From Escherichia coli (GTDB lineage: Bacteria; Pseudomonadota; Gammaproteobacteria; Enterobacterales; Enterobacteriaceae): DNA of 13,117 bases. A program made the position numbers and the translations under genes. The number at the start of each line of letters is the position of its first letter. Position 1 is the stretch's first letter. Positions 1-13,117 of the stretch are shown piece after piece. Under the pieces are notes generated by a model, which saw only the letters and a list, made by a program, of their open reading frames with translations, had not been told where the DNA came from and ran no database searches. Where the stretch lies: NCBI RefSeq assembly GCF_003334815.1, contig NZ_QOWO01000058.1. One strand, 5' to 3'.

Positions 1-39
1 TGCCTCTGCCGTCTGCATAAGACTATGATGCACAAAAAT

Positions 40-135
40 AACAGGCTATAATGGCCTGAAAAACGGGACAGGATGTGTAATTGTAATACCGTCACACGCG
101 ACGCTATTACAATTACCATCTGGTCAGGGCTTCGC
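40..135 (+). other. oriT: Candidate origin of transfer (oriT) upstream of nikA, with inverted repeats
   Basis: Perfect 12-bp inverted repeat GTAATTGTAATA (77-88) / TATTACAATTAC (105-116), extendable to about 17 bp with one indel (72-88 vs 105-120). Second short palindrome CAGGC-TATAATG-GCCTG (42-58) containing a TATAAT hexamer (47-52). Position immediately 5' of a nikA/nikB relaxosome operon matches the R64 oriT arrangement. Exact nic site not determinable by eye. Confidence 0.6.
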
Positions 136-160
136 CCCGACACCCCGTAAGGAGCCTGAA

Positions 161-493
161 GTGAGTGATAGTGCAGTAAGAAAGAAAAGTGAGGTACGGC
201 AAAAGACAGTTGTCAGAACACTCAGATTCTCTCCTGTTGAGGATGAAACCATCAGGAAAAAAGCTGAAGATTCCGGACTTACTGTATCTGCTTACATCCG
301 AAATGCAGCACTGAATAAGCGAATTAACTCCCGTACAGATGATGCTTTTCTGAAGGAGTTAATGAGACTGGGAAGGATGCAGAAGCATCTGTTTGTTCAG
401 GGAAAAAGAACCGGTGACAAGGAATACGCAGAAGTACTTGTTGCCATAACCGAACTTACAAATACATTGCGTAAACAGTTAATGGAAGGTTGA
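161..493 (+). CDS. nikA: Relaxosome accessory protein NikA (ribbon-helix-helix, oriT-binding), 110 aa
   Basis: GTG start at 161 preceded by SD TAAGGAG (148-154); stop TGA 491-493. 110-aa basic protein directly upstream of the relaxase gene; size and position match NikA of IncI1 R64. Confidence 0.88.
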   Translation: MSDSAVRKKSEVRQKTVVRTLRFSPVEDETIRKKAEDSGLTVSAYIRNAALNKRINSRTDDAFLKELMRLGRMQKHLFVQGKRTGDKEYAEVLVAITELTNTLRKQLMEG

Positions 494-503
494 GGATTCT
501 CCG

Positions 504-3203
504 GTGAATGCAGTCATTCCGAAAAAGAGAAGGGACGGCAAGTCTTCGTTCGAAGACCTGGTGTCCTACGTCTCTGTCCGGGATGACATGACCGATGAGG
601 AACTGAATTTATCTTCTTCTTCGCAGGCTGAACAACCGCACCGGAGCCGCTTCAGTCGTCTTGTTGATTATGCAACACGCCTTCGAAATGAATCATTCGT
701 GGCACTGGTTGATGTCATGAAGGACGGCTGCGAATGGGTTAACTTTTATGGTGTGACCTGTTTTCACAACTGTACATCTCTTGAAACTGCCGCTGCAGAT
801 ATGGAGTACATTGCACAGCAGGCACACTATGCGAAAGATAATACTGATCCTGTTTTTCACTACATTCTTTCCTGGCAGGCCCATGAAAGCCCGCGTCCGG
901 AACAGATTTATGACAGTGTACGCCATACCCTGAAATCTCTCGGGCTGGGTGAACATCAGTATGTCTCTGCCGTGCATACCGATACTGATAACCTGCATGT
1001 TCACGTTGCGGTCAACCGGGTGCATCCGGTTACAGGTTATCTCAATTGCCTTTCATGGAGTCAGGAAAAACTCAGCCGTGCCTGCCGTGAGCTTGAACTG
1101 AAGCATGGTTTTGCTCCGGATAACGGTTGCTGGGTCCATGCGCCGGGAAATCGTATCGTTCGCAAAACTGCCGTTGAACGTGATCGCCAGAACGCTTGGA
1201 CACGCGGAAAAAAACAAACTTTTCGCGAGTATGTTGCGCAGACAGCGGTAGCTGGTTTACGCAGTGAACCTGTACATGACTGGTTATCCCTGCATCGTCG
1301 TCTTGCTGAAGATGGTCTGTACCTGTCTCAGATGGACGGAAAATTTCTGGTGATGGATGGCTGGGATCGCAACAGGGAAGGTGTACAGCTTGACTCGTTT
1401 GGCCCTTCCTGGTGTGCAGAAAAACTCATGAAAAAAATGGGTGACTACACGCCAGTACCAAAAGACATTTTCAGCCAGGTGGAAGCACCAGGACGCTATA
1501 ATCCGGACTTCATTGCAGCTGATGTTCGCCCGGAAAAAATCGCTGAAACAGAAAGTCTGCAGCAGTATGCCTGTCGTCATCTTGGAGAACGTCTGCCGGA
1601 AATGGCACGGGAAGGACGGCTGGAAAACTGCCAGGCTATTCACCGCACACTGGCTGAAGCGGGATTATGGATGCGTGTTCAGCATGGTCACCTGGTTATC
1701 TGTGACGGTTATGATCATAACCAGACTCCCGTTCGTGCTGACAGCGTATGGTCACTGCTGACGCTCGACAATGTGAATCAACTCGATGGTGGCTGGCAGC
1801 CTGTACCAACAGATATTTTCCGCCAGGTTACGCCAACAGAACGCTTCCGTGGTCGTCGTATGGAGAGCTGTCCTGCGACCGATAAAGAATGGCACCGTAT
1901 GCGTACAGGTACGGGGCCGCAGGGGGCTATCAAACGCGAACTGTTTTCTGACAAAGAAAGTCTGTGGGGATACAGCATCAGCCATTGTAGCCCTCAGATT
2001 GAAGAAATGATCACACAGGGTGAGTTTACCTGGCAGCGTTGTCATGAGCTGTTTGCACAACAGGGACTGATGCTACAGAAACAACATCACGGGCTTGTTG
2101 TCGTTGATGCCTTTAATCATGAGCAAACGCCGGTGAAAGCCAGCAGCATTCATCCTGATCTGACACTGGGGCGTGCGGAGCCACAGGCCGGACCTTTTGT
2201 GAGTGCCCCAGCAGATTTGTTTGACAGGGTGCAACCTGAAAATCGCTATAACCCGGAGCTGGCTGTCAGTGACAGGTACGGGGTCAGCAGTAAACGTGAT
2301 CCAATGCTGCGCCGGCAGCGACGTGAAGCCAGGGCTGAGGCCCGTGCTGACCTGCGTGCCCGCTATCTGGCATGGCGTGAACAATGGCGTAAACCAGATC
2401 TGCGTTATGGGGAACGTTGTCGGGAAATTCATCAGGCATGCCGTCTGCGGAAGTCACACATTCGTGCGCAGTACGATGATCCGGCATTACGTAAGCTGCA
2501 TTATCACATTGCAGAAGTTCAGCGAATGCAGGCATTGATCAGGCTGAAAGAAGACATCAGGGATGAGCGACAGAAACTTATTGCTGACGGGAAGTGGTAT
2601 CCACCCTCTTACCGTCAGTGGGTCGAAATTCAGGCTGCTCAGGGAGACAGGGCTGCTGTATCGCAGCTGAGAGGCTGGGATTATCGCGATCGCCGTAAAG
2701 ACAAGTCACGCACAACGACGACAGACCGCTGTGTCGTGCTTTGTGAACCGGGCGGAACGCCGGTATACGGTAATACCGGTGATCTCGAGGCCCGTCTGCA
2801 GAAGAACGGGAGTGTTCGTTTCCGTGACCGTCGGACGGGAGAGTTGGTCTGTACGGATTATGGTGACAGGGTTGTTTTCCGTAATCACCATGACCGCAAT
2901 GCGCTGGCAGATAAACTAGATTTGATTGCACCTGTATTGTTTGAGCGTGATCCCAGAATGGGCTTTGAACCAGAAGGAAACGATGGACAGTTTAATCAGG
3001 TCTTTGCTGAAATGGTGGCATGGTACAATGTGACGGGATTCTCTGAACATGGAAATTACGTTATTACTCGACCGGACGTAGATCAGCACAGGGAAGTGAG
3101 TGAGCGGGGCTATCGCAATTACATGGATAGTAACACTTACAGAGATGGAGCTCAGCCAGTTCAGGATAGTGAGAATCGCTGGGAACCTCCAACACCGGTG
3201 TAA
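504..3203 (+). CDS. nikB: Conjugative relaxase NikB (MOB-P family), 899 aa
   Basis: GTG start at 504 with GAGGA (492-496) upstream; stop TAA 3201-3203. Contains the MOB-P histidine-triad motif HTDTDNLHVHVAVNRVHP (compare RP4 TraI HxDxxxxHxH) and an N-terminal Tyr-containing region (DLVSYVSV). The 899-aa length agrees with R64 NikB. Confidence 0.93.
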   Translation: MNAVIPKKRRDGKSSFEDLVSYVSVRDDMTDEELNLSSSSQAEQPHRSRFSRLVDYATRLRNESFVALVDVMKDGCEWVNFYGVTCFHNCTSLETAAADMEYIAQQAHYAKDNTDPVFHYILSWQAHESPRPEQIYDSVRHTLKSLGLGEHQYVSAVHTDTDNLHVHVAVNRVHPVTGYLNCLSWSQEKLSRACRELELKHGFAPDNGCWVHAPGNRIVRKTAVERDRQNAWTRGKKQTFREYVAQTAVAGLRSEPVHDWLSLHRRLAEDGLYLSQMDGKFLVMDGWDRNREGVQLDSFGPSWCAEKLMKKMGDYTPVPKDIFSQVEAPGRYNPDFIAADVRPEKIAETESLQQYACRHLGERLPEMAREGRLENCQAIHRTLAEAGLWMRVQHGHLVICDGYDHNQTPVRADSVWSLLTLDNVNQLDGGWQPVPTDIFRQVTPTERFRGRRMESCPATDKEWHRMRTGTGPQGAIKRELFSDKESLWGYSISHCSPQIEEMITQGEFTWQRCHELFAQQGLMLQKQHHGLVVVDAFNHEQTPVKASSIHPDLTLGRAEPQAGPFVSAPADLFDRVQPENRYNPELAVSDRYGVSSKRDPMLRRQRREARAEARADLRARYLAWREQWRKPDLRYGERCREIHQACRLRKSHIRAQYDDPALRKLHYHIAEVQRMQALIRLKEDIRDERQKLIADGKWYPPSYRQWVEIQAAQGDRAAVSQLRGWDYRDRRKDKSRTTTTDRCVVLCEPGGTPVYGNTGDLEARLQKNGSVRFRDRRTGELVCTDYGDRVVFRNHHDRNALADKLDLIAPVLFERDPRMGFEPEGNDGQFNQVFAEMVAWYNVTGFSEHGNYVITRPDVDQHREVSERGYRNYMDSNTYRDGAQPVQDSENRWEPPTPV

Positions 3204-3228
3204 AGAATGTTATAAACGGGAGATTATT

Positions 3229-3801
3229 ATGGCTTATGTCGATGATTTTAAAGAAGCAATAATCAGGACTCGGCGGTTACAACTTGCGCAACCCGTTGAT
3301 TTATGTGAGATGCATACTCGCATAATGAACGATAAACGAATCCGCCATTTGGGAGGAATTATACGTCCTGTACTGGATCTGAATTCTGGGTATGAACAAC
3401 TGGTTGCGCGATGTATGCCTGTTCATCTTCAAGCCAGACCTTTGGTTGAAGAATGGCTGGGATGTCCTGTTTATTTTACGTTGGGATGGATTGATGATGG
3501 GACCCCAAAAGGTATGTTCAGGTTTGATGAGGACTTTATTACTGATACATTGAAAAATGGTTATACAGGAGATACTGTCAATCTTCATGCATGGCTAACT
3601 TTACCTAGTATGGAAATTATAGATATCACATTATCAACAACAATTTCTATGTTGCAGGGGCATAAGAATCAGTTAGGCGGTGTTATTATCAAGAGAGCTG
3701 ATGATATTAAAGGCTTCTCATATAAGCCAATGCTTATTGGTGATGAATTCCTGTTAAAATCTGGTATATTGCATAAGTTTACATATCTAGAATTGAACTA
3801 G
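3229..3801 (+). CDS. Hypothetical protein, 190 aa, hydrophilic, no recognised domain
   Basis: ATG at 3229 with GGGAG (3218-3222) 6-7 nt upstream; the longer ORF-track start at 3100 overlaps the nikB 3' end and has no RBS. Stop TAG 3799-3801. AT-rich codon usage like the adjacent microcin island. Convergent with mcpB. Confidence 0.6.
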   Translation: MAYVDDFKEAIIRTRRLQLAQPVDLCEMHTRIMNDKRIRHLGGIIRPVLDLNSGYEQLVARCMPVHLQARPLVEEWLGCPVYFTLGWIDDGTPKGMFRFDEDFITDTLKNGYTGDTVNLHAWLTLPSMEIIDITLSTTISMLQGHKNQLGGVIIKRADDIKGFSYKPMLIGDEFLLKSGILHKFTYLELN

Positions 3802-3850
3802 TGTTTTTTAAATAAACTGGTTTTTTGACGTTCTTATCTCTGTTCAGAAA

Positions 3851-6040
3851 TCACCTCCTGTTGGGATGATTATTTATATTATGAGTTCTGACAGGTCGAT
3901 ATTTTATTTCCGAAAAGTGACCATCTCTCAGATACAGAACTCTGTCTGCGGATGCTATTGTTTCTGGTCGATGAGCTATTAACAGAACAGGAATTCCGAG
4001 TTGGCGTAATGTCTGGCTTATTTCTATTTCACTTTCCACATCAAGATGACTGGTTGCTTCGTCCAGTAATAATAGACTAGGTTTTTTATACAGTGCTCTT
4101 GCCAGTAGAATACGTTGCTTCTGACCACCGGAAAGTCCCCCCCCGGTTTCTCCAAGCAATGTTTGATAGCCCATTGGCATTGCCATAATATCACTGTCTA
4201 TAAGTGCCAGACTTGCGCATTTACGCATGTGTTCATGATCTCTAATTTCGCTAAAAAACATTATATTATCAGCTATAGAACCTTTGAAAAGATAGTCATC
4301 TTGCAATACAGTGCCAATTCGTTGACGAACCTGAAAATAATCAGAATGTGTATGTGGTATGCCAAATGCATTAATTCTTCCTTCACTGGGTGTATGAATC
4401 CCAAGAATAAGCTTTACCAATGTTGATTTGCCACATCCTGATTTACCTGTTATTGCTAATATTTCTCCAGGAAAGAGCATTAGTGACGCGTTATCCAATA
4501 TGGGTTTATCTGCGCCCTTATGGCTAAATGTTATTTTTTCGATAAGTAATGGTGGATGGGTATTATCATATTTATGTTCTCTGTACTGGCTTGCAGATAT
4601 TGTTTCATTATGGTTTGCCCAATGGTGCTGATTCTGGTGACCTTCCTGTGGTGTTAGCACAATATCGGCAAGTCTCTCGTTATAAACATCAAGCATGCGC
4701 CAGGAAAAAAAGTTATCAGTCAGATTGCTTATACTGGATGAAAAACGCATCTGATAGGATAAGTAAGCAACCAACATACCCACGGTAAATGTCCCATCCA
4801 GCACTTCTACTGCACCCTGCCACAAAATAATGGCTGAAACTACACTTTCCGTCAGTGTATGCGTCAGCTCATAGCTCATTTGTAAACGATTCTGGCGTAG
4901 CTGTGTGTTTCTGCGGGTAACGTTGAGGTTCAGCCAGGCCGCTTCTCTGTGAATAGTTACACCGTTGATTCTCAGACTCTGAATGCCGTTAAGGGTTTCG
5001 AGAAAATGCCCCGACTCCTTAGTTCCTGCATCCCAGACATCTTCAACAGATTGCCGTAAAGCCGGATACCACAATGCTCTCAGTGCGCCATATATAATAG
5101 CTGCAATTACTGCGATTAATGTCATTCCTGGACTATACAACAGCATCATGCAAAGAGCAGTCACAATAAGTAGCATATCCAGAATGCCTTCAAGAACCTG
5201 CGTTGTCAGCGCCTGCTGGATTATATCTACTGCTTCAAAACGGGCATTAATACTTCCTTTACTTCGGGCATCGAACCATGCAAGAGGGAGTCTTACAAGA
5301 TGATGGAAAACTCTGGCAGTCCATTGCATGTTAAAATTGACTGATAAACTGATCGTTGCCCATTGTCGTGCCAGGGAGAGTAATAATTGTATGAGTGATA
5401 ACAACAGTAGTGCCACTATAATGACATACAACAGACTTCTGTCTGCTGCAACCAGAACTTCATCAATTACCAGTTGATTAAGAAGTGGACCACCTAAAGC
5501 CAGAATCTCAAGGGCCAGAGCAAAAATAATAATTTTTGTCATTGATGCTAAAAGCCCCGGGGTTTTCCCTGTCAGTTGGCGCAGGTGGATTTTTTTTCTC
5601 TCGTTCCGGGGGGTGAAATCACTGGCTGGAGTTAATTCCAGTGCCACTCCTGTAAAATGCTTACCTGCGTCCAACAGACTTATTGTAATTTTTCCTCTGT
5701 CCGGATCATGGATGTATAACCGGTTTCCCCGAACTTTATGGAGAACGACGAAATGGTTCATATCCCAGTGCAGAATAGATGGAAGATTAAGACACCTCAG
5801 ATCTTCGGGTTCCAGACGAACTGCACGTGATGATAAATGGATGGACGCTGCACATTCGATCAACCTTTGTAGCGTCATTCCCTGAATACCTATATTGAAA
5901 CGTTCCCGTAATGTCGATAAATCTGTTTTCAGTCCATGCCAGCAGGCAATCATAGCCAGACACGCCAGACCGCATTCAGCTGATTCGGTTTGACGGATAA
6001 CGGGTAGTTGTTTCCTTACTTTCCAGTTTATTGATTCCAT
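3851..6040 (-). CDS. mcpB: Microcin ABC exporter with N-terminal C39 double-glycine peptidase domain (CvaB-like)
   Basis: C39 peptidase motifs (QTESAECGLACLAM catalytic Cys, HFVVLH His), a transmembrane domain, Walker A GKSGCGKST, ABC signature LSGGQKQR, Walker B LLLLDEATS, H-loop IAHR. Start chosen at the ATG 6040-6038, which overlaps the upstream gene stop as TAATG and has a GGA-containing SD (AAAGGAAA). The ORF-track start at 6088 adds 16 aa and lacks an SD. N-terminus aligns with CvaB (PVIxQTExAECGLACLAM). Confidence 0.92.
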   Translation of the reverse strand: MESINWKVRKQLPVIRQTESAECGLACLAMIACWHGLKTDLSTLRERFNIGIQGMTLQRLIECAASIHLSSRAVRLEPEDLRCLNLPSILHWDMNHFVVLHKVRGNRLYIHDPDRGKITISLLDAGKHFTGVALELTPASDFTPRNERKKIHLRQLTGKTPGLLASMTKIIIFALALEILALGGPLLNQLVIDEVLVAADRSLLYVIIVALLLLSLIQLLLSLARQWATISLSVNFNMQWTARVFHHLVRLPLAWFDARSKGSINARFEAVDIIQQALTTQVLEGILDMLLIVTALCMMLLYSPGMTLIAVIAAIIYGALRALWYPALRQSVEDVWDAGTKESGHFLETLNGIQSLRINGVTIHREAAWLNLNVTRRNTQLRQNRLQMSYELTHTLTESVVSAIILWQGAVEVLDGTFTVGMLVAYLSYQMRFSSSISNLTDNFFSWRMLDVYNERLADIVLTPQEGHQNQHHWANHNETISASQYREHKYDNTHPPLLIEKITFSHKGADKPILDNASLMLFPGEILAITGKSGCGKSTLVKLILGIHTPSEGRINAFGIPHTHSDYFQVRQRIGTVLQDDYLFKGSIADNIMFFSEIRDHEHMRKCASLALIDSDIMAMPMGYQTLLGETGGGLSGGQKQRILLARALYKKPSLLLLDEATSHLDVESEIEISQTLRQLGIPVLLIAHRPETIASADRVLYLRDGHFSEIKYRPVRTHNINNHPNRR

Positions 6041-7293
6041 TACAGATTTCCTTTCATGCTCCATAGTGGCTCTGTCAGCCATTCCCATAAATGACGAGTA
6101 TCAAGGTTGACGTCTCCTTCCAGAGTCATGCCTGGTCTTAGCGGTTCTTTTTTTCCGTATGCAAATATAAATGTATTTTCAGGCTCAACAATAACGCGAT
6201 AATGCCCTTCGTTTTCTTTCCATGTGACGGGTGAAACTGGTAATAAGTCGGAAGGAGCCAGAGTCGTATGACTGATTTCACGAATTGTGCCGTACTGGAT
6301 ACCAAATTTCTGATAAGGGAAGGCCGAAAACTTCAGAGATACTCGTTGACCTGGTCGGATAAAACCGGCTTTCTGGCTGGTAGCATAAAGCTCAATTTGT
6401 AAATGAGCATTATCGGGAATGAGAGTCATGACCGGTTCTGATGCTTTCACAGACTGCCCCTGTTTGATCAGTACAGCAGCAATAGTCCCGGATACTGGAG
6501 CCCTCAGTGTAAATTTTTCTTGTCCGGCCAGTTCATCCTGTTGTTGTTTTAGCACCTGCAATTGTCTGTCGAGTTCTGCTTTACGGCTTTTCCCCTGAAC
6601 AATAAGATGATTTAGTTCATCTTTGGCTGTGTCCATTGCAGTATGCAACTGGAGAAGCCCCTGACGCTGATCTTCAACGTTTTGTTGAGCGGCAGAAACA
6701 TCAATTTGTTTCTGTTGGAATTCGATATCTGACACATAATGCGTACCAGCCAATTTTTTATAGCGTTCCATGACGGATATAGCCAGTTCTGCCTGACGTT
6801 CAGCAAGCTGAAGTCTTTGTTCTGCACTTCTTATTTGTGGCTCAAGTGATACCATCCTTTGCCGTATGGCTTCCTGTTGTTGACTATTATCTCGCGACTC
6901 AAAGGATTGCTGGGAGGCCAGCATGATAGACTGGGTTTTCAGGGAAATACTCATCGTTGCTAATGTGCCAGTTCCGTTACCGTTATAATGTTCTCCACTT
7001 ATATGATAGAGTTGTGTCCCTGCAGTTACGTGTTCTCCTTCGGATACAGTCAGTTGTGTTACATATCCTGCATATTGAGGAATTATTTTTACCAGTCCTG
7101 ATGAGGGCATGACGATACCTGTAAGATGCGCTTTCCTTGTATAGCTACCGTAATAGATGAATACAGTCAGACTTAACATAATGAATAATGTAACTGTTGC
7201 ACATACGGATAGGCTAAATGATGTTGGTAAAATAATGTCACCATATTCAGTGTCATTATGATGTTCTATTGCTTCACTTCTGAATATATTCAT
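6040..7293 (-). CDS. mcpD: HlyD/CvaA-family membrane fusion protein for microcin export
   Basis: N-terminus MNIFRSEAIEHH aligns with CvaA MFRQDALENRK, followed by a single TM helix and a long coiled-coil Q/E-rich periplasmic region. Start taken as ATG 7293-7291; the ORF-track start at 7329 is a TTG with no SD. Stop TAA 6042-6040 overlaps the mcpB start. Confidence 0.88.
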   Translation of the reverse strand: MNIFRSEAIEHHNDTEYGDIILPTSFSLSVCATVTLFIMLSLTVFIYYGSYTRKAHLTGIVMPSSGLVKIIPQYAGYVTQLTVSEGEHVTAGTQLYHISGEHYNGNGTGTLATMSISLKTQSIMLASQQSFESRDNSQQQEAIRQRMVSLEPQIRSAEQRLQLAERQAELAISVMERYKKLAGTHYVSDIEFQQKQIDVSAAQQNVEDQRQGLLQLHTAMDTAKDELNHLIVQGKSRKAELDRQLQVLKQQQDELAGQEKFTLRAPVSGTIAAVLIKQGQSVKASEPVMTLIPDNAHLQIELYATSQKAGFIRPGQRVSLKFSAFPYQKFGIQYGTIREISHTTLAPSDLLPVSPVTWKENEGHYRVIVEPENTFIFAYGKKEPLRPGMTLEGDVNLDTRHLWEWLTEPLWSMKGNL

Positions 7294-7395
7294 TCTTTTT
7301 AATACAATAACTAACCTTTCTGTCAACAAGAGGGGTTGGTTGAATAATATTGATATTTGATATACATCTTACCTGTGTGATGTTAAAGTTTTATA

Positions 7396-8031
7396 CTATA
7401 ATATATTTAACAATATAACAAAGCCGTTTATCCCCGCATGTAACAGCATTGGATAGAAAATCCCCTTACTGCAAATTCTTATATTCAACAATAACATTGA
7501 CATAATAAACAGAATAATTTGATCAGCTACATTATAATACTGCGGATGCATCAGGCAGAAAAATAAAGATGTACACACGCAGGGGGTGAATAATTCTTTT
7601 TTATAAGTCGCACATAGAAGGCCGAATAAACATGTTCGGTAAACAATTTCTTCATAATACGGAACTATCAGGACCAGTATAAATATTTCAATCCAATTAA
7701 GTGAAGTTGATTCACTATTGTTTAAATTGTCTCTATAAGCAAAAATAAGCAGTTGCATGAGAGCAATTACAGCAAATGATATTACTAATAGCTTTAATGT
7801 TTTCGCATTTGTCTTTATGGTGATTTTACAACCTGGTATTCTTCTTAAGTAAAAAATATAAAATGAAGTTGATATTAAAATTTCAGTAATAAAGACAAAG
7901 GAAAATGCCAGGTCCAAACCAATATATTGTATGGTGAATGCTGGTGTGAATATCACAACTGTTGATATAACAACAAGTAGAAGAAACGCTATCGCATTAT
8001 CTTTGCTGTATTTATATATGTTATCATTCAT
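7396..8031 (-). CDS. mcpA: CPBP-family (CAAX protease / Abi-like) intramembrane metalloprotease homologue, 211 aa
   Basis: Polytopic membrane protein with the three CPBP motifs: EExxxR (EEIVYR), FxxxH (FFCLMH) and HxxxN (HAGIN). Very AT-rich. ATG at 8031-8029 lies 4 nt after the mcpI stop (TAG 8038-8036). Confidence 0.85.
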   Translation of the reverse strand: MNDNIYKYSKDNAIAFLLLVVISTVVIFTPAFTIQYIGLDLAFSFVFITEILISTSFYIFYLRRIPGCKITIKTNAKTLKLLVISFAVIALMQLLIFAYRDNLNNSESTSLNWIEIFILVLIVPYYEEIVYRTCLFGLLCATYKKELFTPCVCTSLFFCLMHPQYYNVADQIILFIMSMLLLNIRICSKGIFYPMLLHAGINGFVILLNIL

Positions 8032-8035
8032 AATG

Positions 8036-8236
8036 CTATTTCGCGGAGATTGTTCTTATTTTTTCTATGATATAGTCCATGAATCTTGCTGTGGAAAAAA
8101 GAGTGATCAGCATGACTACAATCTTTGAAAACTCGGAAGGGAGTGAAAACCAGTATAAATCAATAACAGAGGAGCCACTCAATAGCGCAAATCCCAGTAA
8201 CAAACCACATATAAAGGAAAGTAATTTAATAAACAT
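8036..8236 (-). CDS. mcpI: Small two-helix membrane protein, probable microcin immunity protein (66 aa)
   Basis: Small hydrophobic ORF immediately downstream of the precursor gene, the usual position of class II microcin immunity genes. Start chosen at ATG 8236-8234 (MFIKLL...) because GGAGG lies 8-9 nt upstream; the ORF-track start at 8251 would add 5 aa (MEGAT). Confidence 0.7.
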   Translation of the reverse strand: MFIKLLSFICGLLLGFALLSGSSVIDLYWFSLPSEFSKIVVMLITLFSTARFMDYIIEKIRTISAK

Positions 8237-8260
8237 AGTAGCGCCCTCCATTATATCTAT

Positions 8261-8623
8261 TTATCGGTTACATGTTCCGCCAACATTATTACCTGAACAA
8301 CTACTGGAACTTCCTCTGTTACCACATCCATTTCCACTACCATGATCTGAGAGACATTGACCAACAACGGCTCCACCAATGGTACCTCTTGCCATTCCTA
8401 TGGGACCTCCTTTGATCGCACCACCAATCATTCCACTAAATACAGCGTTAGCGCATTTTACAGTGCTTGGATCACTATAAATATGAGTTGGTGCGTTTCG
8501 ACCCAGTGAGTTACGAGCCCCACTGGAACGCTCATTACGGGGGCCACCTTCAAAGTTGCTGTTTGCGTTTCCTCCGCTGACAAGCGTTATCTCATCTAAA
8601 GTTAATTCTCTTATACCTGCCAT
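8261..8623 (-). CDS. mcpM: Class II microcin precursor with double-glycine leader (120 aa), matches microcin PDI McpM from memory
   Basis: N-terminal leader MAGIRELTLDEITLVSGG has the ExLxxxExxxVSGG double-glycine pattern ending at G17-G18, with a second GA site at G35/A36. Gly-rich mature region with GxxxG-like repeats (GGAIKGGPIGMARGTIGGAVVG) and Cys at 57, 90, 100, 109, 118. SD GGGGAAA upstream of ATG 8623-8621. First gene of an operon ending in a C39-ABC exporter. Confidence 0.88.
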   Translation of the reverse strand: MAGIRELTLDEITLVSGGNANSNFEGGPRNERSSGARNSLGRNAPTHIYSDPSTVKCANAVFSGMIGGAIKGGPIGMARGTIGGAVVGQCLSDHGSGNGCGNRGSSSSCSGNNVGGTCNR

Positions 8624-8780
8624 ATCATATTTCCCCTATTGGTTGTTTGTTATTTTGTGCGTTCAAGATAGCCAATAACAAAAATGTAATGAAAGTGAAA
8701 TTGTGTGATTAAATGTAAATATGTGAAAATATTTGTATGTTCTTGAGGTTGTGTGATTACAAAAATATCATCGTGTGAAG
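8624..8780 (-). promoter_or_regulatory. AT-rich promoter/operator region of the microcin operon
   Basis: About 160 bp AT-rich leader between the trbC terminator and the mcpM start. Read on the - strand it contains five TTYAC-type half-sites phased at about 10 bp (TTTCAC, TTTACA, aaTCAC, TTTCAC, aTTACA; + coordinates about 8685-8728). On the + strand TTGTGTGATTA occurs twice (8701-8711, 8749-8759). Exact -35/-10 not assigned. Confidence 0.5.
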
Positions 8781-8808
8781 ATATAAAACCGTGCCAGGGC
8801 TGGCACGG
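8781..8808 (-). terminator. Rho-independent terminator downstream of trbC
   Basis: Perfect 9-bp stem CCGTGCCAG (8789-8797) / CTGGCACGG (8800-8808) with a 2-nt loop; on the - strand it is followed by TTTTATAT (8788-8781). Lies 8 nt after the trbC stop codon (8816-8818). Confidence 0.7.
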
Positions 8809-8815
8809 CCTCTGT

Positions 8816-11107
8816 TCAGTACATTCCGTCCCAGTCCGGACGGTTGGTTTTTTTATGATGAAACCCGTTTACAGGACGCCCTGTCAGGTGGTTATTGTCC
8901 TGTGGAAGCGTTAACAGGTTTATACCTGCTCTTTCTGCTCTCACTGATATCTGATTTTCCTCTTTTGTTTCAGGTAGTTCTGGTCTGTTCAGCGTGATAT
9001 AGCGAATTCGTCGCTCTTCCCGTGTGGTCGTTTTAAGCGTATTCACCGCTGTTTCCCACAAGGCACTTTCACGTGCGTTGATATCCGTGTCGTACTCTTC
9101 CAGCATTGCCATAGCCGCCTGACGTCCTGCAATGCGTTGCTGGAATGTATCCACGATCGTGTGCGGCTCTGTGCGAATTTTTCGTCTTTTTCTGGAGGGT
9201 TTTGCAGTCAGGACGCCAATGATGGCACTGACATTTTCCGGTGACGGTATTCGACGTTGAGTAGTACGGGGAACAAGACGGCGGAGACGGTCCAGGCGTG
9301 GCGCATCCACGCTGATATACCTGTTTATAACAACGGGATCGCTGCTGCAGCTTTTCTCATTGTCAGGGATGAAGAATGATGCTGATGGTACGGTTTCTCC
9401 CCGGAAAATAGAAAAGAACTCGCCAGGATGAAGTTCAATCAACTCCTGAACATCTATCTTACTTTCCATCAGGATGCTGATTTGTGGGCTGTCAATCCAT
9501 GATTCACCAAATATGCCGTCCTGACGCTGCAGGTTGTTCATCCTCGCCCTGGCTTCTTCACCGGCGGCGCTTTTCAGCGTTCTGGCCGTACTGCCCTCGC
9601 TGACAATCCTGCCGGCAAATTTTGTCCCCGTGTTCTGCATCAGTGTTGCAGTATTCGTGGCTGTTGTCTGTCCTTCTATACGTTCCTGGTCCTGTGCCAT
9701 CAAAATCAGAGCAAAATCCAGTGAACGCACCTGAGTGGCTTCCACAGCAATACGGTCTGTATAGTATGCCCCCACTTCATCAAGGAAACACAGATAAGGG
9801 AAACGCCCCTTATATTTTTTGACTTCCAGTGCATCGGAATCAGTTCCTTCGAGGCGGTAGCCCAAATCACGGGCGAGAATCATACTTTTCTGGGTGATAA
9901 ACATTCGTCCCAGAGCAGACGTTGTATGCGCTGATGTATCCAGAGCGGGGATCATTACCATCAGAATCCTGTCGCTGTGAATGCTGTCACGGATATCGAT
10001 ATCACCGGAATCTTCAGCAAAAATATCCCCGAATGCTTCCGTGAATGTGCTGAAAGTTTCAGAAAACTGCCCGGAGAGATAAGCATGTTGTTTTCTGGGT
10101 TCTTCCGTCCAGGCTGATGGTGTCCTGACCAGCGACAGGTCGAAACCGGGAACGTCCTGAAGGTAGTTACGTAACGGTGCGATAGCTTCTTCCGGCCACT
10201 GATCATCGAGGCCACGACAGTAAAGTTTGGCCATCCCTTCGAGAGTCATATGTTCACGGAGCATCTGCAGCGACATTGTTTTGCCTTCGCGCACACACCA
10301 GAATTTAGTACCAAATACCAGTGCCTTGTTCATGGCAATGGCCCGGGACTGCCACTCGCCCCCCTGGACGTTCTGGGGCAACATTGACTGCATTGTCTCC
10401 GCTGTGAATGCCTCAGTGCTGTAACAGAAGGGATTCCAGGTATTTGACTGAGGTCGTGTTTTTTCACCACTCAGAATGATTTCACTGCGGGATTTTCCTC
10501 CGTTCATGAAGTTGATGACTTCCACATCGTCTTCACGGCCAAAGCGTCTGGCCAGATACCAGATCGTTCTTGCCGTATCATTCTGTGCCTTGCCATCGAC
10601 AAGGGTGAATCCTCTTGCCCAGCAAAGCGGGTTAATCGCCCAGGCAAAGATGGTTTCCGTTTTACCACCACCGGTGGTGGCGAAAAACATTATATGGCGG
10701 GTCAGATCGTCCATACTCAGCCACAACTCCCGACCTATATCCCTGACGCGTTGATAACCAACATAAAATATGCCGCTGGCCGGTGACTCCAGGATGACCT
10801 CATACTGAAACAGAGTTGGCCAGAAGCTGAAAAGGCTTCTTTTAATCATTCTGTCCTGTGACGGGTCAGCACATTCCAGCGTCATGGGCATACGAAGAGG
10901 GCAGCGCCATCGCTGCAGACTAAATACCAGCATCGTTATCAGTGTGAACAACAGACATGCCGGTAATGCAAGTGGCCAGATAAAACTGGCCACAAGACTT
11001 GCCACCAGGCAAAAGCCATAGATATTGAGACTCTGGAGTGCATTCCAGACAGGATTTCCCCAGGCTGTACGGTGTAAAAGCTCGGGGTTAACGCGATGTT
11101 CACTCAT
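8816..11107 (-). CDS. trbC: Type IVB coupling-protein-like ATPase TrbC (DotL/IcmO homologue), 763 aa
   Basis: N-terminal TM helices followed by an ATPase domain with P-loop FFATTGGGKTE. ATG 11107-11105 overlaps the trbB 3' end by 8 nt. Position after trbB and size agree with R64 TrbC. Confidence 0.88.
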   Translation of the reverse strand: MSEHRVNPELLHRTAWGNPVWNALQSLNIYGFCLVASLVASFIWPLALPACLLFTLITMLVFSLQRWRCPLRMPMTLECADPSQDRMIKRSLFSFWPTLFQYEVILESPASGIFYVGYQRVRDIGRELWLSMDDLTRHIMFFATTGGGKTETIFAWAINPLCWARGFTLVDGKAQNDTARTIWYLARRFGREDDVEVINFMNGGKSRSEIILSGEKTRPQSNTWNPFCYSTEAFTAETMQSMLPQNVQGGEWQSRAIAMNKALVFGTKFWCVREGKTMSLQMLREHMTLEGMAKLYCRGLDDQWPEEAIAPLRNYLQDVPGFDLSLVRTPSAWTEEPRKQHAYLSGQFSETFSTFTEAFGDIFAEDSGDIDIRDSIHSDRILMVMIPALDTSAHTTSALGRMFITQKSMILARDLGYRLEGTDSDALEVKKYKGRFPYLCFLDEVGAYYTDRIAVEATQVRSLDFALILMAQDQERIEGQTTATNTATLMQNTGTKFAGRIVSEGSTARTLKSAAGEEARARMNNLQRQDGIFGESWIDSPQISILMESKIDVQELIELHPGEFFSIFRGETVPSASFFIPDNEKSCSSDPVVINRYISVDAPRLDRLRRLVPRTTQRRIPSPENVSAIIGVLTAKPSRKRRKIRTEPHTIVDTFQQRIAGRQAAMAMLEEYDTDINARESALWETAVNTLKTTTREERRIRYITLNRPELPETKEENQISVRAERAGINLLTLPQDNNHLTGRPVNGFHHKKTNRPDWDGMY

Positions 11108-12170
11108 GGCCAGACTCGCTGTCGGTGGTTTTCAGGAATAAATTAAGCGTGCCAGTTTCCTGCAGAATTCCAGTAGGCAGATGCCAGCCCGTGTCGGACA
11201 GCACCCATGGGGTACCGGCAAATCCGAACTTACGGAAGGCGACATTGTTAACATCAATCGCAGCTCTGGCTGCTTTCAGGCATGTTTCATCTGCAGGCGT
11301 TGTTTCTTCTGATGGCGTCATCATTCCGTTATCTGCGGAATACAGTCGGTGCCAGCCGGCAGCACGTTTCTGAGCATCTTTTTCACACAGCAGTGGTGCC
11401 ACACGGTCGGTGGATTCCTCTCCACCAATAACTGAAACCGGGTAGATAACGACATTGAAGTCGCTGGCCAGGCGTTTTAAGGCCGGCTCCAGAAGTCTGC
11501 AGTTAGGACAGGCAGGATCGAGAAATGCGAACAGGGTTCGTTCATGACCGGATGACAGGTTGATGGTAAACATGCCCCGATCGGCGTTCCGCTTCAGAAC
11601 AGTAGCCAGATTATGTCGCGCAGCTGCGGCTTCCGGATTTTTGCTTGTGATTGTTTTCTCCGGTACCTGGACGTCTTTTTTCGGGGGAACCGGGAGTTGA
11701 ATGCCTTCATTTAATGGCACAGTGTGATTCAGGTGAGGGGGAAGCAGTCGTGGCTCACCTGCTGTCTGTACTGCTTCAGGCGTTGTATCATCCCAGAATA
11801 CACGATCAACATAGCGGAACAGAGAGAAGCCAATCGTTGCCATTACGAACAGCACAACGCTGGCGATTATGCCACGGAACAAAGGTGTTCTGCTGAAGCG
11901 GCGTTCCATCAGATATTCAAGGCGCAGGCAGGAATCAATAGCTGTAAGTATCTGGTCAGCGTTATGCTCCTGTTTATCAATCAGGAGGGTTTCTTTGTTA
12001 CGGGTGCCCATGGCGTCAAAGGCTATATGAATCAGTTGATTATTTCGTGTTACCAGCCCTGACAGGGCATCCCGTGGAAGGACGGCAATAATTTCTGTCC
12101 TGCCATCCGGCCAGATTGCCTGCACGGAAATATGTTTTGCAATACGTGTTGCAAAGTACTCGATTGTCAT
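11100..12170 (-). CDS. trbB: Thioredoxin-fold protein TrbB (CxxC = CPNC) with N-terminal domain and single TM helix, 356 aa
   Basis: ATG 12170-12168 with SD GGAGAA 8 nt upstream; central hydrophobic helix (LFRGIIASVVLFVMATIGFSLF); C-terminal domain with CPNC active-site motif typical of DsbC/thioredoxin-like conjugation proteins. Confidence 0.82.
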   Translation of the reverse strand: MTIEYFATRIAKHISVQAIWPDGRTEIIAVLPRDALSGLVTRNNQLIHIAFDAMGTRNKETLLIDKQEHNADQILTAIDSCLRLEYLMERRFSRTPLFRGIIASVVLFVMATIGFSLFRYVDRVFWDDTTPEAVQTAGEPRLLPPHLNHTVPLNEGIQLPVPPKKDVQVPEKTITSKNPEAAAARHNLATVLKRNADRGMFTINLSSGHERTLFAFLDPACPNCRLLEPALKRLASDFNVVIYPVSVIGGEESTDRVAPLLCEKDAQKRAAGWHRLYSADNGMMTPSEETTPADETCLKAARAAIDVNNVAFRKFGFAGTPWVLSDTGWHLPTGILQETGTLNLFLKTTDSESGHE

Positions 12171-12188
12171 TTTCAGTTCTCCGGATAA

Positions 12189-12875
12189 TCAGAATTCGTT
12201 GTCTGTAGCAGGTGTGCGGGGCAGGATGTCGTCGGTGAGGGACCAGTTGGTCAGGATGCGGCGTTTCCGGTCGCGATCTGGTTGTGGTTCATCCCAGATA
12301 AGACCGAGACTGAGCATATCCCGCCGTAAGCCTTCCACCGCTTCATCAACACAGGGTTCAGGGCAGGGAAGGCCAAAACGCATGGCTTCGGCCTCTGCAC
12401 GTGCAACGGCCACCACGCCAGCGCCTTCAATAAATCCTTTCGTGGTATTGGCGCGGTGTAATGCATAAAACAGCGTCCTGTCCACGCCTTTCAGCCAAAT
12501 CCAGTTGGGGGGCGTAAGCCGCAGGTCATGTGCATACAGCCAGACCAGCCCACTGCGGACGTAGCGATGTTGTTTCAGCCATTGCTGTGCTCCGTTGCTT
12601 TTAATCACTCTCTGGAAAGCTGATTTGGCCAGTGAATAAACAGGGGTACAGAATTTCCCACTGTCCCGTTTGCTTTTAATTCTGCATGAGAGGTTCAGTG
12701 TATCCATGAGCTTTAATGCTGCCTTACGATCATCCAGGAAATACTGAAGACCAAATATGGCAAAGAGCGCTTTTTCATGTGGTGCCATGTCTTTCCAGGA
12801 CGTTAAAGGTTTACCTAACTGGGCCATGAAACATCGTCTTGCAGCTGCAACATCGAGCTGCATATTGGTGATGAG
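12189..12875 (-). pseudogene. trbA: 3' portion of trbA (DotM/IcmP-like T4BSS component), probably truncated by IS insertion
   Basis: The 259-codon ORF 12189-12968 reads through the IS left terminus; its first 31 codons (12876-12968) are IS sequence. The remaining 228 codons encode a hydrophilic domain with no TM helices, consistent with the C-terminal cytoplasmic part of a DotM-like protein. Gene order trbA-trbB-trbC matches R64. Confidence 0.55.
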
Positions 12876-13117
12876 TGAACCGCCCCGGGAATCCTGGAGA
12901 CTAAACTTCCTGAGAAAGAGGTAAACAGGATGACTAAAAATACTCGTTTTTCCCCCGAAGTCCGTCAACGGGCAGTCCGTATGGTTCTGGAAAGTCAGAG
13001 CGAATATGACTCACAATGGGCGACAATTTGTTCCATTGCTCCAAAGATTGGCTGTACGCCGGAGACTCTGCGTGTCTGGGTTCGCCAGCATGAGCGGGAT
13101 ACCGGGGGCGGTGATGG
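12876..13117 (+). mobile_element. IS3-family insertion sequence (IS629/IS1203-like), left end; continues beyond window
   Basis: Terminus begins 5'-TGAACCGCCCCGGGAATCCTGGAG (12876-) with the TG start typical of IS3-family inverted repeats, followed 54 bp later by the orfA start. OrfA N-terminus MTKNTRFSPEVRQRAVRMVLESQ...TLRVWVRQHERDTGGGDG matches the IS629/IS1203 OrfA helix-turn-helix protein from memory. Confidence 0.85.
12930..13117 (+). CDS. IS3-family transposase OrfA (partial, 5' end only)
   Basis: ATG at 12930 preceded by AGAGG (12917-12921); open to the end of the window (62 codons). HTH-type N-terminal domain; the Gly-rich GGGDG stretch precedes the expected frameshift region. Confidence 0.85.
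   Translation, partial: MTKNTRFSPEVRQRAVRMVLESQSEYDSQWATICSIAPKIGCTPETLRVWVRQHERDTGGGD

Follow-up and report, generated by a model that had tools for sequence, protein, structure and literature searches.

A plasmid gene beside the microcin PDI block as a probable accessory occupant of the nikB-trbC slot and predicted thiol enzyme

Microcin PDI (mccPDI) is described as a system of five genes, in which cleavage of McpM is credited to McpB (PMC5311971). The published genetics of mccPDI covers the five mcp genes together with tolC and was performed in the native strain (PMC5311971). The literature that we searched gives five genes only, which bears out the statement in the original prediction that no sixth mccPDI gene had been described. 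Among papain-like enzymes, a transglutaminase-like group includes 2HLY (DUF2026, PF09641), SseI, PMT, and protein-glutaminase (PMC10318531). DUF2026 is uncharacterized and has a serine replacing the cysteine (PMC10318531). The one other paper that cites 2HLY employed the structure as a modeling template in a study of lasso peptides.

We analyzed a 13,117-nucleotide stretch of DNA from Escherichia coli (the window), which is a piece of an IncI1-type plasmid backbone (Table 1). Five minus-strand genes in the window match the published microcin PDI genes mcpB, mcpD, mcpA, mcpI, and mcpM (PMC5311971). Between nikB and these genes lies an open reading frame (the ORF) on the strand opposite to that of the mcp genes. 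The original prediction described the ORF as an orphan gene in the microcin island, possibly a microcin accessory factor not described before or else unrelated cargo. Its product is identical or nearly identical to WP_000332079.1 and WP_000332080.1, both named "hypothetical protein," and neither accession was found in the papers searched.

Table 1. Features of the window, given as positions within the 13,117-nucleotide stretch
Feature	Position	Strand	Remark
nikA	161-493	+	
nikB	504-3203	+	
Diverged 3' end of nikB	3125-3203	+	Accompanies the ORF; left edge of the 5.68-kb extra segment
Shine-Dalgarno GGGAG	3218-3222	+	6 nt before the ORF ATG; 15-19 nt past the nikB stop
ORF	3229-3801	+	ATG 3229-3231, TAG 3799-3801; 190 codons plus stop
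Cys62 codon	3412-3414	+	Predicted nucleophile; first residue of helix 62-77
His120 codon	3586-3588	+	Predicted general base; first residue of strand 120-124, HAWLTLP motif
Glu129-Asp132 codons (E-I-I-D)	3613-3624	+	Strand 129-132, directly after the His strand; Asp132 predicted to complete the triad
Last six ORF codons plus stop	3782-3801	+	Sole part of the ORF kept on IncF microcin plasmids
Microcin PDI block (mcpB, mcpD, mcpA, mcpI, mcpM)	3822-8705	-	Outside the ORF feature; boundary marker
mcpB	3851-6088	-	745-aa C39-ABC exporter
mcpD	6040-7329	-	HlyD-type adaptor
mcpA	7396-8031	-	CPBP protease-like protein
mcpI	8036-8251	-	71-aa protein
mcpM	8261-8623	-	120-aa Gly-rich peptide
Terminator-like hairpin plus T-run	8826-8843	+	First rightward one after nikB
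trbC, trbB, 3' part of trbA	Beyond mcpM	-	

Judged by its sequence relatives, the ORF is a genuine gene rather than a chance reading frame, because full-length homologs down to 26% identity share its invariant residues. Much of its earlier description held up. The ribosome-binding site is indeed good (GGGAG, six nucleotides before the ATG), and GGAG is found at the same spacing upstream of homologs elsewhere. The ORF is AT-rich like the microcin genes, as described, with a GC content of 38.4% versus 30 to 46% in the mcp genes and 51.4% in nikB. The 21.8-kDa product is hydrophilic, also as described, with no membrane segment (maximum 19-residue hydropathy, 1.02; GRAVY, -0.07). Coordinates, a pattern scan, and folding likewise agree with the earlier account that the ORF converges on mcpB, that the two stop codons are 49 bp apart (3802 to 3850), and that this spacer contains no terminator (z = -0.04 versus shuffled sequences); the sole hairpin reported by the pattern scan near the spacer is a weak one within the ORF itself.

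Upstream, the ORF is co-oriented with nikB and separated from it by 25 nt, and a pattern scan of positions 2900 to 4000 detected neither a terminator nor a plus-strand promoter-like site in this gap. Given the short distance, the ORF's own ribosome-binding site, and the lack of such signals in between, we infer that the ORF is most likely cotranscribed with nikA and nikB. Downstream of nikB, the first terminator-like hairpin in the rightward direction is found past the microcin block, and in the empty-site plasmid its equivalent falls approximately 150 nt beyond the ORF stop codon, a position that fits a nikA-nikB-ORF transcription unit.

Comparison with three sets of plasmids sets the boundaries. 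The standard IncI1 plasmids pESBL-EA11 and p369 have homology (blastn) to positions 1 to 3124 and 8802 to 12877 only. Because this homology ends at 3124 and resumes at 8802, positions 3125 to 8801 (5.68 kb) are, by sequence comparison, extra relative to standard IncI1 backbones. The left edge falls within nikB, whose last 26 codons in the window are diverged yet homologous: across the final two 50-aa bins, NikB identity declines first to 0.86 and then to 0.54, with the tail still homologous. In most of the 1,617 plasmids that bear this nikB, the megablast match already ends near position 3034. IncF microcin plasmids, by comparison, are 98.5 to 98.7% identical to the window across positions 3782 to 8782 (approximately 5 kb). 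In these plasmids, the microcin block begins with CATATCTAGAATTGAACTAG, which is the last six ORF codons plus the stop (20 nt). These nucleotides are native to the ORF, since the C-terminal residues that they encode, TYLELN, align with TWYELE or TWYELG at the C termini of distant homologs. On this sequence evidence, the 20-nt remnant indicates that IncF plasmids acquired their copies from a site with the ORF already in the neighboring position and that the ORF was lost in the process. In plasmids that have the ORF only, the 12 bp TGAGCCGCTTAC stands in place of positions 3822 to 8705.

The ORF and the microcin block each occur without the other. A match was present in 47 of 5,426 complete E. 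coli genomes, in every case on a plasmid; 36 carried both the ORF and the mcp genes, seven carried the mcp genes only, and four carried the ORF only. In PLSDB, 53 plasmids had both and 11 had one of the two, with at least five ORF-only and at least five mcp-only plasmids among the matches listed. The mcp-only copies (seven E. coli genomes plus at least five PLSDB plasmids) each retained just 20 nt of the ORF. Conversely, nikB, the intact ORF, and trbC occur without microcin genes on five IncI/IncF plasmids. These include NZ_LR883001.1, a conjugative IncI plasmid that is otherwise intact and likewise free of microcin genes; in it, nikB and the ORF are followed 141 bp on by trbC and then by trbB and trbA.

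We also sampled the wider family to which the ORF belongs. Fifty-nine loci were reduced to 38 independent lineages (<85% identity), and all neighboring genes were clustered. The original prediction had suggested checking whether homologs co-occur with CvaB-like exporters, and no recurrent microcin or CvaB-type exporter neighbor appeared in any of the 38 lineages. It had also named wide occurrence of homologs on IncI1 backbones lacking microcin genes as grounds for giving up its proposal, and by that standard the syntenic homologs on microcin-free I-type plasmids refute it.

These observations bear on the proposal that the ORF is an accessory gene of the microcin, whether as a predicted thiol peptidase that carries out or aids the unusual second cut in McpM (G35/A36) or by serving mccPDI as a regulator, a chaperone, or an additional immunity factor. 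The ORF adjoins mccPDI in approximately 80% of E. coli and Salmonella copies, and the fold predicted for its product is peptidase-like. Moreover, McpM is cut twice in sequence, and only dependence on mcpB and mcpD was tested, in the native background of E. coli-25, a strain that presumably carries the ORF. Nevertheless, the IncF blocks are nearly identical over 5 kb with only the 20-nt remnant, ORF-only plasmids exist (one of them an intact IncI plasmid), the syntenic homologs are on microcin-free plasmids, and none of the 38 lineages has an exporter as a recurrent neighbor. The ORF also runs toward the mcp genes rather than in the same direction. Its product lacks a signal peptide, whereas McpM cleavage goes with export; deletion of mcpB or mcpD abolishes that cleavage, in keeping with the C39 domain of McpB, and the second site is Gly-Ala, as C39 domains cut. 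A microcin accessory function is therefore very improbable, and we reject the idea of an undescribed accessory factor for a gene that separates from the mcp block both ways and has homologs in microcin-free plasmids.

What the ORF does share with its relatives is a position. In standard plasmids, nikB is followed by 36 bp and then trbC. The ORF is present at ≥95% identity in just 58 plasmid records, versus 1,617 records with the same nikB, a difference that excludes it as a core transfer gene of IncI1 plasmids. Homologs that are 54 to 62% identical to the ORF protein occupy the same slot in a metagenome, in Yersinia (39 collection blocks), and in Citrobacter braakii. The order of genes at these loci is a NikA-like gene, a relaxase of 633 to 643 aa, the homolog, sometimes a PLD-type nuclease, and then convergent trbC-like, trbB-like, and trbA-like genes, of which the trbB-like product has a thioredoxin fold and the trbA-like product a DotM_C domain. 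Neither microcin nor ABC exporter genes were found at the Yersinia, Citrobacter, and metagenomic slot loci. We accordingly read the ORF as probably an accessory gene that variably occupies the nikB-trbC slot. As a further part of the same explanation, and with the same degree of confidence, we regard it as a bystander to the microcin system, beside which the mcp block landed or, in some plasmids, was lost. Of the two options left by the original prediction, it was the fallback of unrelated cargo that survived, given that the ORF is separable from the mcp block and that the slot is shared with microcin-free I-type plasmids.

The ORF is also not an orphan in the sense first proposed. Searches of the ORF protein against Pfam, NCBIfam, PADLOC, PHROGs, and PDB sequences gave no match (for Pfam, nothing even at E ≤ 10), a profile built from a 52-sequence alignment had no significant match in Pfam or PDB, and none of the 52 members individually matched Pfam at E ≤ 0.001. 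A word-indexed search returned 106 relatives, all of them "hypothetical." When 1.84 billion cluster representatives were searched with a profile, 905 sequences had E ≤ 0.001, of which 535 reached E ≤ 1e-10; at the 50% clustering at which they were counted, the family thus has about 905 representatives. Structural search of AFDB50 yielded 128 relatives, all uncharacterized and a few mislabeled "TmRNA." Nearly all members are stand-alone proteins of 180 to 210 aa. One exception, a 405-aa fusion (P0214), was considered as a Rosetta-stone link, but its C-terminal extension has no similarity to the 370-aa gene downstream of the Rhodanobacter homolog, and the match of that extension to HEPN was nonsignificant (E = 0.56).

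The distribution of the family is wide and patchy, spanning Gamma-, Beta-, and Alphaproteobacteria, Campylobacterota, Bacteroidota, Myxococcota, and Nitrospirota. Family genes tend to an AT skew relative to their flanks, and together with the patchy taxonomy this is consistent with horizontal transfer. No member was found in 50,697 phage genomes, and just six were found in 2.9 million viral contigs.

Conservation within the family is pronounced. In a set of 225 family sequences with a median identity of 35% to the ORF protein, H120, D132, and W122 are invariant; E129, T84, G86, T124, and P167 are conserved at 99.6%; and C62 is cysteine in 96.9%, with serine in three of the seven exceptions. 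The earlier statement that the product contains no recognizable motifs thus gives way to a near-invariant Cys...His...Asp pattern. An AlphaFold model computed on the family alignment was of high confidence, with a mean pLDDT of 91.1 and a pTM of 0.88. In the model, the cysteine sits at the start of a helix, the histidine on a strand, and the Asp/Glu residues on the next strand, a layout that is canonical for the superfamily, and Asp132 or Glu129 is the candidate residue for orienting His120. An additional helical region is formed by residues 1 to 60. We regard a papain/transglutaminase-type fold as quite probable on these modeling grounds. The family would then be a new one within the papain/transglutaminase superfamily, because the ORF protein fails every existing sequence model.

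It could be argued that the protein is a noncatalytic scaffold, binding, or immunity-type protein in which Cys, His, and Asp are structural. Structural scores are modest, the papain-like superfamily includes pseudo-enzymes such as menin, and one homolog (P0050) bears the UniRef name "DUF1851 domain-containing protein." That name can be set aside as pointing to a DUF1851 or Tdi1-type immunity protein, since PF08906 was not matched by any of the 52 members, P0050 included, and neither were other Pfam families. In addition, exactly three residues are (near-)invariant over a range of approximately 26 to 98% identity, they occupy the canonical positions, and serine is the only recurrent substitute for Cys62. 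This conservation and the exchange for serine favor a nucleophile-base-acid triad, and we consider a purely structural role for the three residues very improbable. The product is instead most likely a soluble, cytoplasmic thiol enzyme.

The characterized enzymes closest in structure are glutamine deamidases, transglutaminases, and peptidases. A mechanism can be proposed. The thiolate of Cys62, activated by His120 and Asp132, would attack an amide carbonyl of a protein or peptide substrate, and a thioester intermediate would form on Cys62. If this thioester were resolved by water, the enzyme would act as a peptidase or a glutamine deamidase; if it were resolved by an amine, the outcome would be transamidation.

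Clues to the setting in which such an enzyme might act come from the genes around family members. There was no conserved partner gene across the 38 lineages, and a comparison of approximately 20 small co-oriented neighbors with NCBIfam and PADLOC mostly gave no match. One recurrent association is with relaxases. The family gene lies directly downstream of, and co-oriented with, a NikB-type relaxase in four lineages, all of I-type, and it takes the same position after a MobA/MobL relaxase and after a TraA/RecD-like relaxase-helicase fragment; other copies lie among tra genes. This company raises the possibility that the protein is coupled to conjugation, acting on relaxosome or coupling proteins in the donor or, after export through the Dot/Icm-like type IVB system, modifying a recipient protein for establishment. 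The placement between the relaxase and trbC/trbA, with the DotM_C domain of the TrbA-like product, would suit this role, as would an ART-PolyVal-like gene that the Citrobacter slot also houses. The structural neighbors include the translocated effectors SseI, SpvD, Ceg10, and RavJ, and the delivery of effectors linked to relaxases is well established (PMC5512222). However, approximately 96% of the plasmids with the same nikB lack the ORF and are nonetheless typed as conjugative, so transfer can do without it. Within the transferred strand, the ORF also falls at the trailing end and not in the leading region. Furthermore, most lineages of the family are away from any relaxase, and several are chromosomal beside defense systems. 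We therefore consider a role coupled to conjugation unlikely. In the literature searched, no transglutaminase-type domain was found among the polyvalent proteins of conjugative elements.

A second association is with defense genes. In Pantoea and Paraburkholderia, the family gene is the third of a co-oriented set, following a CBASS 2TM effector and a CD-NTase cyclase, and the three genes have diverged in parallel between the two genera (45.4%, 45.7%, and 43.8% identity). Gabija GajA is encoded 143 bp downstream of one family member. An SMC-like defense ATPase, the candidate system PDC-S05, a Qat system, paired reverse transcriptases, and a HEPN/AbiU2 gene were also found near family members. 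Genes of 377 to 380 aa upstream of two other homologs (L056 and L051) were examined as candidate CD-NTases and rejected; one proved to be a fragment of a RecD/TraA-like helicase, and the sequence of the other resembles a KAS-III-type enzyme. The ties of the family to conjugation and to defense islands amount to guilt by association.

Taken as a whole, the explanation that we think probable is that the ORF is an accessory gene of the nikB-trbC slot, a bystander to the microcin, and a thiol enzyme active in conflict between mobile elements and their hosts. In that setting it would be a protein-modifying enzyme of defense or counterdefense, a role suggested by the carriage of family members on plasmids, integrative elements, and defense islands and their near absence from phages. 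A more specific version can be offered only tentatively. It is possible that these proteins form an unrecognized kind of conflict enzyme that modifies a protein of the invader or of the host's defense, that in one clade the enzyme has become a third component of CBASS (for example, in processing or priming of the cyclase), and that the IncI copy is a defense or counterdefense gene expressed with the relaxase.

Several consequences follow for the annotation of these plasmids. The functional unit of mccPDI stays at the five published genes, and the ORF should not be counted in. The mobile microcin block is now delimited, to positions 3822 to 8705 or, as captured by IncF plasmids, 3782 to 8782. 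The nikB-trbC junction of I-type plasmids emerges as a conserved cargo slot, and a recurrent occupant of this slot belongs to an unannotated, probably enzymatic family that has approximately 900 representatives and is covered by none of the models of Pfam, NCBIfam, PADLOC, or PHROGs. The company of relaxases and of CBASS, Gabija, Qat, and reverse-transcriptase genes, together with the absence from phages, makes the family a candidate for a new activity related to defense or establishment. If it proved inert in assays of such activities, the ORF would be one more hitchhiking plasmid gene.

How the ORF protein relates to known systems can be judged case by case. The CBASS Cap genes are comparable only in that a family member is third in the operon in just two of the 38 lineages (L026 and L038). 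The window has no CBASS genes, PADLOC has no model for the ORF protein, and no third CBASS gene of this type was found in the literature searched; a description as a CBASS accessory gene is untrue for the window gene and for the other 36 lineages. McjB and the lasso-peptide B proteases (Transglut_core3, PF13471) include the one known transglutaminase-fold cysteine protease that matures a microcin. In contrast, mccPDI is a linear microcin of class IIa type that is processed by its C39-ABC exporter, and the analogy was rejected because the ORF family has no Pfam match and no context of peptide-antibiotic clusters. LapG (4FGO), TglA (9CRN), PeiW (8JX4), and protein-glutaminase (2ZK9/8Z3I) are periplasmic, secreted, or directed at the cell wall, whereas the ORF protein has neither a calcium site nor a signal peptide and carries the N-terminal helices of residues 1 to 60. 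The deamidases SseI and PMT-C3 (Tox-PLDMTX, PF15645; 4G29 and 2EBF) are domains of secreted toxins directed at eukaryotes and equipped with targeting regions; the ORF protein, by contrast, is stand-alone, predicted to reside in the bacterial cytoplasm, borne on plasmids and islands, and without sequence similarity to them. Finally, DUF2026 (PF09641), represented by the Agrobacterium protein Atu2299/APC5867 (2HLY), has 10 to 12% identity to the ORF protein in structural alignment and no sequence-profile match with the family, and it has a serine where the ORF family has its cysteine.

The microcin PDI block is shared between the plasmid studied here and two IncF plasmid loci (L002/L003), and its IncF copies retain 40 bp and 77 bp of I-type flanking sequence on their two sides. 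Included in these flanks is a 20-nt remnant of the 190-aa ORF. Because the IncF copies keep I-type flanks with part of the ORF, sequence comparison indicates that an I-type plasmid was the source of the block and IncF plasmids the recipients, not the reverse. In plasmids that carry nikB, the ORF, and trbC without the microcin genes, a unique 12-bp filler, TGAGCCGCTTAC, occupies the site of the block, and these plasmids could represent either empty sites or deletion scars.

The edges of the nikB-trbC junction also differ from the standard IncI1 arrangement. On one side, the last 26 codons of nikB in the window represent a different allele; on the other, a GC-rich hairpin (CCGTGCCAGGGCTGGCACGG) adjoins the trbC stop codon in place of the standard GGCCGCGCCAGAATCCGGCGCGGCC. 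Such divergence on both sides points to acquisition through homologous recombination rather than transposition, with the entire junction, as judged from these alleles, derived from a diverged relative in the I-complex.

Additional genes were found between nikB and trbC in other I-type plasmids. A Citrobacter braakii plasmid contig (L017) encodes an extra 174-aa protein (6405-6929) between the relaxase and its homolog of the ORF, which belongs to an unnamed family of predicted papain/transglutaminase-fold thiol enzymes. The 174-aa protein had a weak match to ART-PolyVal (ADP-ribosyltransferase) and no match in NCBIfam, and we therefore interpret the slot as one that accumulates small putative effector enzymes. 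Yersinia and metagenomic I-type plasmids (L011 and L014) carry a phospholipase D (PLD)-family nuclease gene (PLDc_2, Nuc-like) in the same slot, which is missing from the window.

Coordinates of features at the plasmid junctions and in homologous loci.
Feature	Locus	Coordinates	Strand	Basis or context
Diverged nikB 3' end	Window	3125-3203	+	Sequence comparison
I-type flanks kept beside IncF microcin PDI block	Window	3782-3821 and 8706-8782		Homology to L002/L003 9001-14001
Replaced segment near trbC stop	Window	8783-8812		Sequence comparison
trbA	Window	12189-12968		
IS3-family (IS1203-like) match	Window	12876-13117		Sequence homology
PLD-family (PLDc_2, Nuc-like) nuclease gene	L011	8086-8604		Between family member and trbC
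PLD-family (PLDc_2, Nuc-like) nuclease gene	L014	8543-9097		Between family member and trbC
Three-gene CBASS/family block	L026	4128-6588		Pantoea sp. IMH
Three-gene CBASS/family block	L038	4096-6552		Paraburkholderia unamae

Pattern scanning, together with folding of the spacer between the two stop codons, identified no terminator 3' of the ORF (window positions 3802-3900), so read-through from nikAB and the ORF would enter the 3' end of mcpB in antisense. This creates possible transcriptional interference between transfer genes and microcin export genes. At the other end of mcpB, the longest ORF of this ABC exporter gene overlaps that of the HlyD-type adaptor gene mcpD by 49 nt (6040-6088). 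RefSeq annotations of the IncF copies choose an mcpB start that leaves the two genes adjoining without overlap, so in the window, too, translation of mcpB probably begins 3' of the first ATG. In NZ_CP074123.1, the mcpB match breaks approximately 370 nt into the 3' end and picks up again at another position; the gene's sole annotation is "ATP-binding cassette domain-containing protein." In this plasmid mcpB seems to be disrupted, whereas the ORF is intact.

Homology to standard IncI1 trbA ends at position ~12877, and the window closes with 240 bp that match an IS3-family (IS1203-like) element, for which thousands of E. coli records carry matching sequence. Thus, trbA appears to be broken by an insertion sequence, which may weaken conjugation of this particular plasmid.

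Some family members are labeled "TmRNA" or "Putative TmRNA" in UniProt (AFDB entries A0AB73G0Q2 and A0A1C3RLV3), evidently an annotation error spreading through databases. Other homologs lie beside CBASS genes. In two distant genera, Pantoea (L026) and Paraburkholderia (L038), a family member is the third gene of a co-oriented block, after a CBASS 2TM effector and a CD-NTase cyclase, and 105 to 140 bp separate it from the cyclase gene. We found neither a PADLOC model nor a paper for the third gene. The recurrence of the block in distant genera, along with the parallel divergence of its genes (45%, 46%, and 44% identity), suggests that CBASS in this clade has a third component, the family protein, inherited together with the other two.
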